Shown here piece by piece: positions 18,105 to 20,843 of a stretch of DNA of 64,000 bases. The stretch covers positions 2,928 to 66,927 of the forward strand of contig CAKPDO010000003.1 in assembly GCA_934148985.1 (NCBI GenBank), given 5' to 3'. The notes under the pieces were generated by a model. The model saw nothing but the letters and a program-made list of their open reading frames with translations. It searched no databases and was not told the DNA's origin. The translations under genes and the position numbers were made by a program. Numbering within the stretch: the first letter of the stretch is position 1; each line of letters starts with the position of its first letter. The stretch comes from an uncultured Clostridia bacterium. Lineage in GTDB: Bacteria > Bacillota > Clostridia > TANB77 > CAG-508.

Positions 18105-18524
18105 TTATTCTACTGCTCCTATTATAAATTTGGCAATTGAGACGGCTCCGAATGTCATAACCATCCCCAAAACTATTGGAACCATTGTTTTTTTCGTTTC
18201 TTCCAATACTGTTGGATTAGTTTCCACCACTAACTTAAATCCTGTGAATGCTATCATTACCACTGATGTTAAGGCTGATGCTATTTGCAAGAAGCCTAAT
18301 ATATATCCTGCCGTTTTTTGTAATTCAGTATAATCTAATGAATCTATTGGCGTTACTTTTTTTATTGTTCCACTTACAGTTGGGATAGTTCCAGGTGGAT
18401 CTTCTGACTCTTTATGCGCTGCATTTACAGTATTTTGTTTTGCACATAATGAATATACCACAAAAAAAATAATAATTATTATAACTCTCATTGTTCTCTT
18501 CATAATTACTAACACTCCTTTCAT
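18105..18524 (-). CDS. VirB2/TrbC-like (pilin-like) small membrane protein, paralogue 1
   Basis: 139 aa: signal peptide (..VNAAH), then two hydrophobic helices separated by a short charged loop (GFLQIASALTSVVMIAFTGFKLV..ETKKTMVPIVLGMVMTFGAVSIAKF). Confidence 0.5.
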   Translation of the reverse strand: MKGVLVIMKRTMRVIIIIIFFVVYSLCAKQNTVNAAHKESEDPPGTIPTVSGTIKKVTPIDSLDYTELQKTAGYILGFLQIASALTSVVMIAFTGFKLVVETNPTVLEETKKTMVPIVLGMVMTFGAVSIAKFIIGAVE

Positions 18525-18529
18525 GTTAA

Positions 18530-18916
18530 TTATTTTCCCATTCCACTAATAATAAATTGAGAAATTGAAACTGCTCCAAATACCAGTATTAATCCTAAAA
18601 CTACCATCATTCCCTCTTTCTTTATCGTCGCTTTTACATCAGGAGTGGCAACTATATATTTATATCCATTAACTCCAATCATTACAACTAACAAAATACC
18701 TGATACAACCCTTAAAAACCCCAAAAATCTCCCAACAATCTCTCTCAGAGTTGATGTTTTATTAACTGTATCTACGTCAATATTAGCGTTAAATCCATTT
18801 ATATCACTGCTTAATGATACATCAGCATATACCAAATTCACTCTAAATGTATTAAATATAATAAAACTAATAATAAATAATATAGATATTTTCTTAAAAT
18901 TTAACATTGTTATCAC
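18530..18916 (-). CDS. VirB2/TrbC-like small membrane protein, paralogue 2
   Basis: 128 aa with the same signal peptide plus helix-loop-helix layout (GFLRVVSGILLVVMIGVNGYKYI..KKEGMMVVLGLILVFGAVSISQF). Confidence 0.5.
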   Translation of the reverse strand: MITMLNFKKISILFIISFIIFNTFRVNLVYADVSLSSDINGFNANIDVDTVNKTSTLREIVGRFLGFLRVVSGILLVVMIGVNGYKYIVATPDVKATIKKEGMMVVLGLILVFGAVSISQFIISGMGK

Positions 18917-18952
18917 TCCTTTTTTGTAAGTGTATTTTCCACTATCTACTCT

Positions 18953-18961
18953 ATTATAACA
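18953..18961 (-). promoter_or_regulatory. extended -10 promoter (TGTTATAAT) for paralogues 2 and 1
   Basis: The minus strand reads TATGTTATAATA just downstream of the 18970-19015 hairpin. Confidence 0.35.
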
Positions 18962-18969
18962 TATAAAGC

Positions 18970-19015
18970 AAAAAAAAACAATTTCTGGCCAAAAATATCC
19001 AGAAATTGTTTTTTA
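18970..19015 (-). terminator. rho-independent (bidirectional) terminator inside the pilin-like gene array
   Basis: The 11-bp stem ACAATTTCTGG / CCAGAAATTGT (18978-18988 / 18999-19009) is flanked by an A9 run and a T run. Confidence 0.7.
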
Positions 19016-19019
19016 TCTC

Positions 19020-19391
19020 TTAAGCTGCCACACCTACTAAGAATTTAGCTATTGATGTTGCTCCAAATACTAATACAAATCCTACTACTATTGGTACGCC
19101 TTTTTTCTTCATTTCATCTTTTACATCTGGTGTTCCAACAATATAGTTAAATCCTGTATATGCTAATACTAATACTGCTACCAAAGCTGATGCTATTTGT
19201 AAAAATCCTAATAATTTTCCTATTGTTCCTTGTAATGATTCATAATTGTTTGAACTAGTTTCATTTGTTTTATTTTTTACTCCCTCTATTGCTGCTGTTG
19301 CATCACTAGCAAAACTCATATTTACTGGCATTATTACCAATGTACTAACAAGTATCATTAAAATTGCGAATATTTTATTGATTGTTTTCAT
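19020..19391 (-). CDS. VirB2/TrbC-like small membrane protein, paralogue 3
   Basis: 123 aa. The C-terminal 69 aa (LQGTIGKLLGFLQIASAL...KFLVGVAA) differ by one residue from paralogue 4. Confidence 0.5.
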   Translation of the reverse strand: MKTINKIFAILMILVSTLVIMPVNMSFASDATAAIEGVKNKTNETSSNNYESLQGTIGKLLGFLQIASALVAVLVLAYTGFNYIVGTPDVKDEMKKKGVPIVVGFVLVFGATSIAKFLVGVAA

Positions 19392-19446
19392 AAAAATTCT
19401 CCCTCCTTTAAAAAATATATATTAATGTAAATTTAATATCATTTAT

Positions 19447-19905
19447 TTATGCTGCTACACCTACTAAGAATTTAGCTATTGATGTTGCTCCAAATACTAA
19501 TACAAATCCTACTACTATTGGTACGCCTTTTTTCTTCATTTCATCTTTTACATCTGGTGTTCCAACAATATAGTTAAATCCTGTATATGCTAATACTAAT
19601 ACAGCTATTAAAGCTGACGCTATTTGTAAAAATCCTAATAATTTTCCTATTGTTCCTTGTAATGATGAATAATTATCCGAACCAGTTTCATCGGCCTTTA
19701 CTCCATCTATTACTGATGCCGCCGAACTAGCTTTTGAACCTCCTCCACCATCTCGTATTATCGCAGGTTTTATTGTATCAGCAACTTTAATTGTTCTAAC
19801 TTCATCATCCGATTCAGCCATTGCCAAACAATTATTACCTGGCATAAAAGCTAATACACAAGTAGATATAATTACTGCAACTAATAATTTACTAATTTTT
19901 TTCAT
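19447..19905 (-). CDS. VirB2/TrbC-like small membrane protein, paralogue 4
   Basis: 152 aa with the same C-terminal core as paralogue 3. The exposed N-terminal part is longer and divergent. Confidence 0.5.
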   Translation of the reverse strand: MKKISKLLVAVIISTCVLAFMPGNNCLAMAESDDEVRTIKVADTIKPAIIRDGGGGSKASSAASVIDGVKADETGSDNYSSLQGTIGKLLGFLQIASALIAVLVLAYTGFNYIVGTPDVKDEMKKKGVPIVVGFVLVFGATSIAKFLVGVAA

Positions 19906-19928
19906 AAGATACTCCTTTCATTTTCTAT

Positions 19929-20351
19929 TTATTCTACAACAAAAGATTTCATCATTATTTGAATAATTGCCATTGCAATTCTCCATATTGTATATGCTCC
20001 AAATCCAAAAGCCATTCCTATAAATATAGTTTTTAAGCTTTTCTGGGCCGTTTCTCTTTGAGCTGGTGATGCTCCACTTGCCATATATCTTACTCCCGTT
20101 ACAGAAAGAGCAATTGTTGATATTCCAGCAAGTAATACAAGTAGAATTCTATTTAGTGCTTTTACAATATCTTGAAAAAATGTAAATGTTGGACTTATAA
20201 TCCCCCCTACATCTTTTGTTGGTTCATTTAAAAATTCTGATGTTGCCGAAAATGCATCTGACACCCAATCGGCGTATACGTAGGAATTTGAAATTATAAA
20301 AATTAGTGCTATAAAAATTATGGTTATCATCTTTTTTTTCATTTCAATCAC
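19929..20351 (-). CDS. VirB2/TrbC-like small membrane protein, paralogue 5 (divergent)
   Basis: 140 aa with a signal peptide (..VYADW) and two hydrophobic helices separated by a GASPAQRETAQKS loop. Confidence 0.4.
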   Translation of the reverse strand: MIEMKKKMITIIFIALIFIISNSYVYADWVSDAFSATSEFLNEPTKDVGGIISPTFTFFQDIVKALNRILLVLLAGISTIALSVTGVRYMASGASPAQRETAQKSLKTIFIGMAFGFGAYTIWRIAMAIIQIMMKSFVVE

Positions 20352-20363
20352 CTACTTTCTTTT

Positions 20364-20843
20364 TTATACATTAAATACTGCAAATATAATTTTAACTATT
20401 GCTGCACCACTGAATAATAGCACTGATCCTATGAATATCCCTCTACCAAAATCTAATAATTCCATTTTTGCTTCTGGTCCAACTGCCTTATGTCTTCTAA
20501 CTATTCCAAATCCTAAATCCATTGCAAGCTTATCGTTTCCATTTAAGAATAATCCAAATCCAAATATTGCAATTGAAATTATTGTCAAAATTCCTCCTAT
20601 TATTTGTACAAATCCTAATATTGGATTTACAATTCTATGTATGAAATTTACAAATGGTGTTGATAATGTTTCGGCGGGGCCATTCATTCCTTCCGGATTC
20701 AAATTTGTTATAAAAGAATTTGACAGTATACTTGTATCTATATTATCTCCATCCTTAGCAAAACAAGAATAGTTAAGATTAAATATTATACTTATTATAA
20801 ATATTAAACTTATTATAATACCACGTTTTTTCATTACTTTCAC
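20364..20843 (-). CDS. VirB2/TrbC-like small membrane protein, paralogue 6 (divergent, longer loop)
   Basis: 159 aa and first gene after the promoter. Signal peptide, then two hydrophobic helices with a longer intervening loop. Confidence 0.4.
   Translation of the reverse strand: MKVMKKRGIIISLIFIISIIFNLNYSCFAKDGDNIDTSILSNSFITNLNPEGMNGPAETLSTPFVNFIHRIVNPILGFVQIIGGILTIISIAIFGFGLFLNGNDKLAMDLGFGIVRRHKAVGPEAKMELLDFGRGIFIGSVLLFSGAAIVKIIFAVFNV

Follow-up and report, generated by a model that had tools for sequence, protein, structure and literature searches.

A 64,000-nucleotide (nt) stretch of DNA from an uncultured Clostridia bacterium (contig CAKPDO010000003.1, positions 2,928 to 66,927; hereafter the window) encodes six consecutive open reading frames (ORFs), all on the minus strand and spanning 18105-20843, that lie directly upstream of genes for a VirB4-type ATPase and other components of a type IV secretion system (T4SS). 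We consider it likely that these six genes encode Sec-exported subunits of the VirB2/TrbC pilin family and that a chromosomal VirB4 machine uses them to build a surface pilus or a wall-spanning conduit. The six genes, here termed P6 to P1 in array order, and the three that follow them are listed below with predicted protein lengths in amino acids (aa).

20364-20843, minus strand: P6, first-position pilin-like gene; probable ATG at 20834 (156 aa); loop of ~35 aa
19929-20351, minus strand: P5, second-position pilin-like gene; probable ATG at 20342 (137 aa)
19447-19905, minus strand: P4, class-C (TrbC-type) pilin with a longer, putatively exposed N-terminal segment; PF04956, 40.2 bits
19020-19391, minus strand: P3, class-C pilin; PF04956, 38.9 bits
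18530-18916, minus strand: P2, class-C pilin; PF18895, 28.1 bits; probable ATG at 18907 (125 aa)
18105-18524, minus strand: P1, class-C pilin; PF04956, 27.0 bits; probable ATG at 18503 (132 aa)
17604-17963, minus strand: PrgI/VirB3-like small membrane protein (119 aa); Pfam PrgI, 15.7 bits, weak
16391-17614, minus strand: TrsD/TraC-like protein (407 aa); NCBIfam TrsD, 20 bits, weak; precomputed PF26593 TraC-like hit
14506-16443, minus strand: VirB4-type ATPase (645 aa); P-loop_TraG 61 bits, conju_CD1110 198 bits, VirB4_plasma 189 bits

The original prediction, which was made from the sequence letters without database searches, held that all six proteins share one architecture, and this was confirmed. 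Each begins with a hydrophobic, signal-like segment that closes with a small-x-small motif (SFA-S, AMA-E, VYA-D, VYA-D, CFA-K, and VNA-A among the six proteins, with the hyphen marking the predicted site). This segment is followed by a variable segment and then by two hydrophobic stretches (19-residue Kyte-Doolittle mean of at least 1.6) on either side of a charged, lysine-rich loop. Three hydrophobic segments were thus identified per protein, and two in P5 at the cut-off used; helix 2 of P5 is slightly under this cut-off, yet it aligns with helix 2 of the other pilins. Cleavage of the signal peptides was predicted by the small-x-small rule only, and position -1 is alanine in at least 90% of 44 homologues. 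Two details of the earlier description stood in part. The loop between the helices is short, as described, in P1-P5 and not in P6. The lengths of 123-159 aa are correct for the mechanical ORFs, although the starts of P6, P5, P2, and P1 are probably 3-7 codons too far upstream, with internal ATGs that have Shine-Dalgarno sequences; the strongest Shine-Dalgarno sequence of the array is that of P3 (AAAGGAGG). The corrected lengths of P6, P5, and P2 agree with gene calls in sister strains, and the length of P1 is strain-dependent (132 or 138 aa).

Comparison to curated families places most of the array among VirB2-type pilins. P4 and P3 score above the curated cut-off (27.9 bits) of the Pfam TrbC/VirB2 family (PF04956), P1 falls 0.9 bit short of it, and P2 exceeds the cut-off (26.6 bits) of the Pfam T4SS_pilin family (PF18895). 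Scores of P6 (PF04956, only 15.5 bits) and P5 (20 bits each to T4SS_pilin and to the Mbov_0395 pilin-like family) are under the cut-offs; nevertheless, a profile built from class-C (P1-P4-type) sequences only still recovers both P5 (26 bits) and P6 (32 bits). Weak matches of P1-P5 (18-25 bits; cut-off 40) were also detected to the NCBIfam pilin-like family of the Mycoplasma integrative and conjugative element (ICE; Mbov_0395, NF045849). A database search with P3 yielded 123 relatives, a few of which are named 'trbC/VIRB2 family' by their source, and among the 120 homologues listed nearly all carry a precomputed PF04956 assignment and most carry PF18895 as well. When aligned with hhalign to eight authentic VirB2/TrbC proteins of the mating-pair-formation (MPF) type T, taken from plasmids, the array pilins are in register over helix 1, loop, and helix 2 and share a G...FGA motif. 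An AlphaFold2 model of mature P3 (predicted local distance difference test, pLDDT, 80.5) features two long helices in a hairpin (pLDDT 80-93 over the helices) that follows a poorly ordered N-terminal segment. On balance, pilin family membership is well supported for four of the six proteins (P1-P4) and plausible for P5 and P6.

Gene order points the same way. The array lies directly upstream of the PrgI/VirB3-like gene, the TrsD-like gene, and virB4, the place that the original prediction had likened to that of virB2, and the 119-aa gene matches annotated 'PrgI family' genes of related plasmids in position and size. Together with the three of six proteins above Pfam curated thresholds, this position supports the VirB2/TrbC-like assignment.

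To place the array in a wider context, we searched a one-genome-per-species collection for VirB4 relatives, which yielded 384 matching stretches, the best 80 of which were analyzed. These 80 share 74-97% identity with the VirB4 of the window, which fits vertical descent, and all are from metagenome-assembled genomes of uncultured Clostridia or Bacillota (one titled only 'uncultured bacterium'), including Clostridium sp. CAG:452, CAG:575, and a complete chromosome of 1.70 Mb, the only one seen in this lineage. A PrgI/VirB3-like gene was identified in 78 of the 80 loci and a TrsD-like gene in every one. Among the 53 loci with enough upstream sequence, scanning with a profile trained on the six paralogues revealed at least three pilin genes in 51 (three in 37 loci, four in 11, and five, six (the window), and eight in one each). 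An identical VirB4 is indexed in 57 assembly-collection blocks, and those contigs that were read are from human-gut metagenome assemblies. On the six contigs shown with the identical VirB4, six small genes lie upstream of it and the polysaccharide-deacetylase neighbor is the same, while the DNA beyond that neighbor varies.

Several points weigh against the pilin reading. P5 and P6 are under every curated cut-off, and two-helix membrane proteins are prone to compositional profile matches. The hhalign alignment to authentic VirB2/TrbC proteins is weakly significant (E = 4e-4, probability only 34%), and a sequence profile compared to chains in the PDB found nothing relevant. Foldseek searches of the PDB with the full-length (pLDDT 69.6) and mature P3 models returned only generic hairpins (ROP, EsxB, and the ATP-synthase c subunit) at E above 1, with no pilin among the top 50. 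Because a two-helix hairpin holds too little three-dimensional information, this outcome is uninformative rather than negative. Beyond the six proteins, the PrgI/VirB3 assignment and the VirB6 assignment of genes downstream are weak, the genome could encode a relaxase or coupling protein beyond the region scanned, and the thick cell wall of the host is assumed. Finally, we know of no filament that has been seen in any monoderm T4SS.

Some of these points would also be expected if the six genes encoded ordinary small membrane proteins (holin-like, bacteriocin-immunity, or Maff2-like) that match VirB2 profiles through hydrophobic composition and adjoin a T4SS by chance. The proteins are indeed short with two transmembrane helices, such that composition-driven matches could occur, pilins did not stand out in the Foldseek and PDB searches, and P5 and P6 remain beneath all curated cut-offs. 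However, three of the six exceed Pfam pilin cut-offs, while no Maff2, holin, or immunity family was matched by P1-P6 in Pfam (E up to 1) and no family at all in PHROGs (E up to 0.01), matches that the original prediction had named as evidence against a pilin-like identity. The array is moreover syntenic with virB3-trsD-virB4 in 51/53 species loci, a PF18895 gene occupies the same position in plasmids of cultured Firmicutes, and the alignment with authentic VirB2 is in register with a common motif. This alternative is largely refuted, and we regard it as very improbable.

The VirB2-type pilins of the window are not equally related to one another. P5 and P6 share only 21-27% identity with P1-P4 and with each other, whereas P3 and P4 are 77% identical overall and 96% identical at the nucleotide level across the last 225 nt. 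Each of P1-P4 best matches the last-position gene in arrays of other species, while P6 and P5 are orthologous to the first and second array genes, respectively, in relatives (L007-L012). These matches identify P1-P4 as a local four-fold amplification of an ancestral last-position pilin. Among 43 three-gene arrays, the last-position gene best matched another last-position gene in 98% of comparisons. A scheme of three strictly conserved pilin classes was softened, as orthology was clean only at this last position (position 2, 68%; position 1, 44%). In some species, the first array genes are long (300-435 aa) and encode the pilin core at the C-terminus (L074 4391-5698; L069 5983-7191; L019 6241-7350). 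Such long genes could encode pilins with a large N-terminal exposed domain, possibly as adhesin-pilin fusions.

The amplified genes are also those that vary between strains. In seven strains with 100% identical VirB4, mean between-strain identity was 99.8% for VirB3, 99.4% for TrsD, 99.2% for P6 (range 98-100%), and 99.0% for P5 (range 96-100%). The lowest between-strain identities of P4, P3, P2, and P1 were 65%, 61%, 73%, and 62%, respectively. Nucleotide identity falls from 98-100% to 58-78% exactly between ~19900 and 18200, recovers across virB3-virB4, and drops again from ~14600 downward, where the large proteins encoded downstream of VirB4 (including paralogues of ~570 aa) reach between-strain minima of 60-83%. 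Synonymous divergence (dS) of P1-P4 is 0.5-0.86 relative to the window strain and 0.18-0.53 between the contigs L001 and L002, as compared to 0.02-0.06 for flanking genes other than virB3, and the ratio of nonsynonymous to synonymous divergence (dN/dS) of P1-P4 is 0.25-0.5. The high dS indicates that P1-P4 comprise old alleles that were exchanged by recombination, and not the products of fast local mutation. The cores of P3 and P4 are 86-96% identical at the nucleotide level within a strain and, in an ungapped comparison, 52-74% identical between strains, which indicates gene conversion. As judged from these sequences, the variation of P1-P4 is the pattern expected of surface structures under frequency-dependent selection by phage, immunity, or partner specificity, and it constitutes the strongest indirect evidence that the class-C proteins are exposed.

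Such variation is also what would be expected if the machine translocated nothing and displayed antigenically or receptor-variable pili, as has been proposed for the Bartonella Trw system, a possibility that overlaps in part with the reading favored here. Pili of this kind would bind host mucus, epithelium, or partner bacteria, and the class-C paralogues and alleles would broaden binding or evade immunoglobulin A (IgA) and phage. Surface antigens typically show such old alleles and such a recombination pattern, neither a coupling protein nor a relaxase was found in the cluster, and the tandem variable VirB2 genes with variable large ectodomain proteins resemble Trw (PMC12857230). However, the variation extends into the cytoplasmic or lumen-facing loop, which is unexpected for pure receptor binding, and a second, very conserved VirB4-like ATPase encoded in the window suggests more than passive display. 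Furthermore, the homologous system of Patescibacteria is essential for host-dependent growth, suggesting an exchange of material beyond adhesion (PMC12857230). We thus view pili that serve for display only as possible and less probable than an active pilus or conduit assembled from VirB2-type subunits.

The array and the machinery genes are separated by sequence elements that recur within the array, all on the minus strand:

20859-20887, minus strand: candidate sigma-70-type promoter upstream of the array (TTGCCA, 17 nt, TATAAT; 11/12 matches in a consensus scan)
18966-19014, minus strand: predicted intrinsic terminator 1, after P3; hairpin at ~18973-19014 and a run of 9 T
18953-18962, minus strand: extended -10 string ATGTTATAAT of the P2-P1 unit; exact match
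18019-18066, minus strand: predicted intrinsic terminator 2, at the boundary of the pilin array and the machinery operon; hairpin at ~18023-18066 and a run of 8 T
18001-18010, minus strand: extended -10 string ATGTTATAAT of the virB3-trsD-virB4 operon; exact match

The strong hairpin terminators that had been proposed after P3 and P1 were borne out by folding energy (dG of -19.6 and -15.9 kcal/mol; z of -5.0 and -4.9, respectively), by their T-runs, and by shuffling, as all 200 shuffles folded less well than either hairpin. The same extended -10 string follows each terminator, again as proposed: ATGTTATAAT occurs exactly twice in the 64 kb, each time just downstream of one terminator. Two copies per 64 kb are not above chance (1.2 expected), and the placement is the informative part. 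Likewise, sigma-70-type consensus matches such as that at 20859-20887 are not enriched over shuffles in this A+T-rich region, and the candidate stands at the sequence level only. A simple terminator scanner detected neither array hairpin because the stems are A+T-rich and the scanner requires three G-C pairs. Rfam identified two tRNAs only over the window, with no leader or riboswitch near the array. The two terminator-promoter modules can be aligned and exhibit compensatory changes in the stem (CTGG/CCAG versus ATGA/TCAT), which suggests that the internal module is a copy of the terminal one; it looks like a duplicate that was copied along with a pilin gene.

The boundary between pilins and machinery is conserved well beyond the window. 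A custom RNAfold scan (hairpin and T-run, dG of -8 or lower, shuffle control) detected a hairpin with a T-run after the last pilin gene in 66/67 species loci versus 4/201 shuffled controls, and a TGnTAnAAT motif is present in the pilin-machinery spacer of 62/67 loci versus 0.11 expected per 260 nt. Together these frequencies show that the order of pilin genes, terminator, extended -10 promoter, and machinery genes is a conserved design. Terminators within the array were found in only 5/67 loci, so that the two-unit layout is particular to the species group of the window. The insulation by terminators that had been suggested is therefore real at the sequence level, and at the pilin/machinery boundary it is conserved across the lineage, which would fit pilin subunits that are made in excess over the machine.

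The genes downstream of virB4 extend the cluster in the order pilins, PrgI/VirB3-like protein, TrsD, VirB4, VirB6-like proteins, and hydrolases:

12774-14486, 11039-12757, and 8106-9818, minus strand: three paralogues of ~570 aa, VirB6-like candidates with hydrophobic segments
9843-11015, minus strand: 390-aa membrane protein among the ~570-aa paralogues
109-8092, minus strand: distal part of the cluster, with a 692-aa secreted protein, a 470-aa protein, two small ORFs, and a 558-aa membrane protein
5208-5993, minus strand: M15 peptidase (Pfam)
2356-3723, minus strand: NlpC/P60 hydrolase (Pfam)

Each ~570-aa paralogue carries a signal peptide and its own, unrelated ectodomain of ~340 aa, while the polytopic C-terminal domain is common to all three (BLASTP E = 1e-27 and 2e-30 over the C-terminal 260-300 aa, 28% identity), and a weak TrbL hit is recorded for these proteins in sister strains. 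One further 218-aa gene lies past the window, after which the cluster ends before convergent housekeeping genes (context in L087). In related species, proteins of 600-1170 aa at the position of the paralogues hold a domain that matches the pilin core (38-59 bits), and a homologue on a C. botulinum plasmid has a T4SS_pilin match (23 bits). Marginal pilin-profile matches (E of ~6e-4 to 8e-4) were also obtained with an 86-aa membrane protein (2071-2331, minus strand) and the 558-aa membrane protein (109-1785, minus strand) of the distal part; these are probably compositional. The TrsD-like ORF and virB4 overlap by 53 nt (16391-16443) in different frames. Longer VirB4 proteins have an N-terminal part that TrsD resembles, which makes the pair look like a VirB4 split in two; a second such pair in the window (56241-58646) is split too.

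Genes for DNA transfer were not identified alongside this machinery. In Pfam and NCBIfam searches, the 21-kb cluster showed neither a relaxase nor a VirD4-type coupling protein nor an integrase. Its unassigned proteins matched no VirB8, type IV coupling protein (T4CP), or relaxase family, and the adjoining 10 kb likewise gave no match to relaxase or T4CP families. VirB5, VirB7, VirB9, VirB10, and VirB11 were not detected in the locus, and the 64-kb window encodes no unassigned P-loop protein except the second VirB4-like ATPase and an adjacent 304-aa protein with a weak P-loop. Mobile-element borders of the cluster (an integrase or a variable insertion site) were likewise not found, and its flanks are alike in the seven strains.

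These results bear on whether the locus is instead a mating-pair-formation module, either an old ICE that became fixed in the chromosome or a system with its relaxase and coupling protein elsewhere, in which the pilin-like proteins would aid contact between donor and recipient. The best family matches of VirB4 are to conjugation families (the CD1110 family, Mycoplasma ICE VirB4, and TraC), the nearest plasmid relatives hold the same module of pilin, PrgI, TrsD, VirB4, and hydrolase, and wall hydrolases are typical of Gram-positive conjugation systems. However, in addition to the lack of relaxase, T4CP, and integrase in the 21-kb cluster, the cluster has the same neighbors in seven strains, parB-gidA are adjacent to it in many species, and the identity of VirB4 across the best 80 genomes fits vertical descent. 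Even the related plasmids are mostly typed as non-mobilizable themselves. A conjugative role is thus improbable.

A model for the VirB2-type pilus or conduit can be proposed from these findings, in which we infer signal-peptide cleavage, membrane topology, filament assembly, expression ratio, and biological role. Each precursor would be inserted by Sec and cut by signal peptidase I after the small-x-small motif. The mature protein of 75-125 aa would form a membrane alpha-hairpin, with its variable N-terminus and its C-terminus outside and the lysine-rich loop in the cytoplasm. VirB4, together with the PrgI/VirB3-like protein, TrsD, and the VirB6-like polytopic proteins, may then extract and stack the subunits into a pilus or a shorter wall conduit, with the M15 and NlpC/P60 hydrolases of the cluster opening the wall. 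The ancestral array would have comprised three genes, of which P6 and P5 represent the conserved first and second and probably encode minor or priming subunits, while P4-P1 would represent the amplified last-position gene and probably encode the major exposed subunit. Their alleles would be old, swapped between strains by recombination, and homogenized within a strain by gene conversion. By parting pilins from machinery, the terminator and extended -10 promoter would allow pilin transcripts to exceed machinery transcripts, and duplication of this module with a pilin gene in the species of the window would have generated the second unit. The lack of relaxase and coupling protein in the cluster, along with vertical inheritance, suggests that the likely role is contact or exchange with other cells or host surfaces and not self-transfer of a mobile element.

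The closest precedent for the locus is the T4SS of Patescibacteria. A 2025 survey described chromosomal T4SS loci in this group that comprise VirB4, TrsD, PrgI/VirB3, VirB6, and arrays of 2-11 VirB2-like pilins, mostly without a relaxase and often near dnaA, and stated that Gram-positive T4SS classes have no virB2 (PMC12102498). A review from the same year considers VirB2 to be absent from Gram-positive T4SSs, Patescibacteria excepted, and reports six divergent, essential pilins in Southlakia epibionticum (PMC12857230). The original prediction had known of no pilin-like multigene array in a monoderm T4SS, a statement that is outdated because the arrays of Patescibacteria, including an essential six-gene array, have been published (PMC12102498, PMC12857230). 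A literature search found no published description of a VirB2-like pilin array in Bacillota. The window would represent such an array in gut Clostridia.

The two systems share several features. Both belong to monoderm hosts with small genomes, and both comprise VirB4, TrsD, PrgI/VirB3, VirB6-like proteins, and tandem divergent pilins that are detected with PF04956 and PF18895; in Patescibacteria, such arrays are exemplified by Ca. Nanosynbacter lyticus TM7x and by Ca. Southlakia epibionticum ML1, which has six pilins. A relaxase is usually lacking there and none was found near the window locus, and the loci are often beside dnaA or the origin there and ~30 kb from dnaA in the window. In contrast, the host of the window is a member of the Bacillota (Clostridia), and its cluster encodes peptidoglycan hydrolases, whereas VirB1 is mostly absent in Patescibacteria. 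Pilins in Patescibacteria arrays share 25% identity on average and 54% at maximum, while four of the six in the window are a recent amplification of one class, are up to 77% identical, and undergo gene conversion. The known examples are not reported to have a single amplified class, ancient recombining alleles, or a terminator-promoter boundary that is conserved across the lineage.

Comparison to diderm systems is also informative. Like VirB2/TrbC proteins of MPF_T systems (e.g., Agrobacterium VirB2 and RP4 TrbC), the pilins of the window have a signal peptide and two hydrophobic helices with a basic loop and are encoded directly upstream of virB3 and virB4. They differ in that the host has no outer membrane, there are six copies rather than one, the signal peptides are shorter, and the C-terminus stops right after helix 2. 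VirB2 and TrbC undergo cyclization. A C-terminus that ends right after helix 2 leaves no obvious substrate for this reaction in the pilins of the window.

A second resemblance is to the variable pilins of intracellular pathogens. Bartonella Trw has multiple sequence-variable copies of VirB2 and VirB5 (PMC12857230), and in Trw and in Anaplasma phagocytophilum tandem variable VirB2 proteins are proposed to form surface pili whose variability would serve adhesion to specific hosts or evasion of immunity (PMC12857230, PMC12102498). The class-C copies of the window are similarly tandem, amplified, and hypervariable between strains, and a coupling protein is lacking in Trw and was not found near the window locus. 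Bartonella and Anaplasma are, however, diderm intracellular pathogens with full VirB2-VirB11-type machines, whereas the host of the window is a monoderm of the gut commensal type, and its machine has an MPF_FATA-like core. The likeness is one of function, and no orthology is claimed.

Relatives of the locus were also identified on plasmids of cultured Firmicutes. The closest plasmid VirB4 proteins are 31-41% identical to that of the window and are from Clostridium, Bacillus, Paenibacillus, and Thermoanaerobacterium plasmids that are mostly typed as non-mobilizable. Megaplasmids such as C. botulinum pINGR16-02E1, C. beijerinckii p1, C. perfringens pJFP838A, Thermoanaerobacterium pMU3262, and B. 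thuringiensis BTB_502p encode a small pilin-like protein, PrgI, a TrsD-like protein, VirB4, a large membrane protein, and a hydrolase in the same order as the window. They differ in being plasmids and in having only one or two pilin-like genes, which are annotated as 'hypothetical'. The small genes of pJFP838A (30.2 bits) and pMU3262 (38.1 and 36.5 bits) pass PF18895, while that of pINGR16-02E1 is a weak match (19.2 bits). The presence of PF18895 genes in the same position on plasmids suggests that VirB2-like genes seem to be general, and unrecognized, in the TrsD-containing branch of monoderm T4SSs. Neither megablast of 12000-21000 nor tblastn of P3 yielded a match among plasmids; the pilin-like genes of plasmids have diverged too far for BLAST to detect, and only position combined with Pfam revealed them. 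Unannotated pilin-like genes directly upstream of PrgI were observed on three plasmids (L101 4890-5348; L103 4686-5749; L091 9027-9443). Plasmid pCP13 does not encode a VirB2-like PcpB2, as the Pcp locus lists only pcpB1, pcpB4, pcpB6, and pcpD4 (PMC8941779).

The Mycoplasma ICE that encodes Mbov_0395 offers a further monoderm comparison, in that a small pilin-like protein is encoded beside VirB4 (Mbov_0397 family) and the VirB4 of the window matches the Mycoplasma VirB4 family at 189 bits. It differs in being a mobile ICE with a relaxase and coupling protein and in having a single-copy pilin-like gene, and matches of the window pilins to that family are far under 40 bits.

The exception made for Patescibacteria is the basis for the idea of a monoderm T4SS pilus that is needed for epibiotic life (PMC12857230, PMC12102498). 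The locus described here represents a second lineage, within bona fide Bacillota, that has the same parts list and no nearby DNA-transfer genes and that has kept them in at least 80 species-level gut genomes. Strain variation argues independently for exposure of the major subunit and for selection on it, and the presence of the locus makes it possible that these poorly known gut Clostridia rely on cell-cell contact. The hosts of pJFP838A and pMU3262 are cultured relatives in which the question of monoderm T4SS pili is genetically tractable.

The window is chromosomal and spans the replication origin, as cumulative GC skew and gene strand bias both switch near 50 kb. One arm from the origin encodes dnaA, dnaN, recF, gyrB, and gyrA, and the other, after rpmH-side genes, encodes yidC, jag, mnmE, gidA, rsmG, parA, and parB. 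The start of dnaA is at 49515, with its identity taken from a syntenic 452-aa gene in L104-L106 with Pfam DnaA domains. In 20-25 of the 80 species loci, gidA, rsmG, parA, and parB are directly upstream of the array, which marks its origin-proximal position as old. The distance from the array to dnaA is ~30 kb in the window and 9-10 kb in sister strains that lack an insert of ~18 kb, which interrupts the origin-proximal arrangement in the window strain. The origin is thus flanked on one side by the pilin array, VirB3, TrsD, VirB4, and VirB6-like proteins and on the other side by a second TrsD-VirB4 pair with gyrB-gyrA. A tentative extension of the VirB2-type pilus model, and one that we hold to be doubtful, is that a lineage of abundant uncultured Clostridia of human and animal guts keeps an origin-flanking, T4SS-derived apparatus as core equipment, and that the hypervariable VirB2 pilus it makes serves an obligate, contact-dependent interaction with other cells, as in epibiotic Patescibacteria, with Bacillota as the source or sister of the Patescibacterial system. 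If true, this would overturn the statement that Gram-positive T4SSs have no VirB2.

The second TrsD-VirB4 pair lies between gyrB and gyrA on the plus strand and comprises a TrsD-like gene (56241-56816, 191 aa) and a gene for a VirB4-like ATPase (56826-58646, 606 aa). The ATPase scores 308 bits to conju_CD1110 (cut-off 325), is 27% identical to the main VirB4, and is 82-92% identical in more than 100 protein clusters. Two genes, encoding the 304-aa protein with a weak P-loop and a 233-aa protein, follow it within 56241-60330 (plus strand), a region with a G+C content of only 19-21%. The order gyrB, TrsD, second VirB4, two genes, and gyrA is repeated on three more contigs (L104-L106) with a 91%-identical copy. 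The second VirB4 may be a second motor of the same machine, and the pair adds to the picture of a T4SS-derived apparatus that is embedded in the core origin region.

A strain-variable block is located at 21900-39600, between the polysaccharide deacetylase gene and the DUF4446-parB genes. It encodes TelA, a VWA lipoprotein, two OmpA-NMT1 binding proteins with an ABC transporter, and an S24/helix-turn-helix repressor, and two tRNA-Ser genes within it (30478-30726) adjoin a gene for a tyrosine integrase (30835-31977). This integrase is part of a separate insert, which some strains lack and which is placed differently in another. Some other strains hold GIY-YIG, HicB, and Fic genes at the position of the block.

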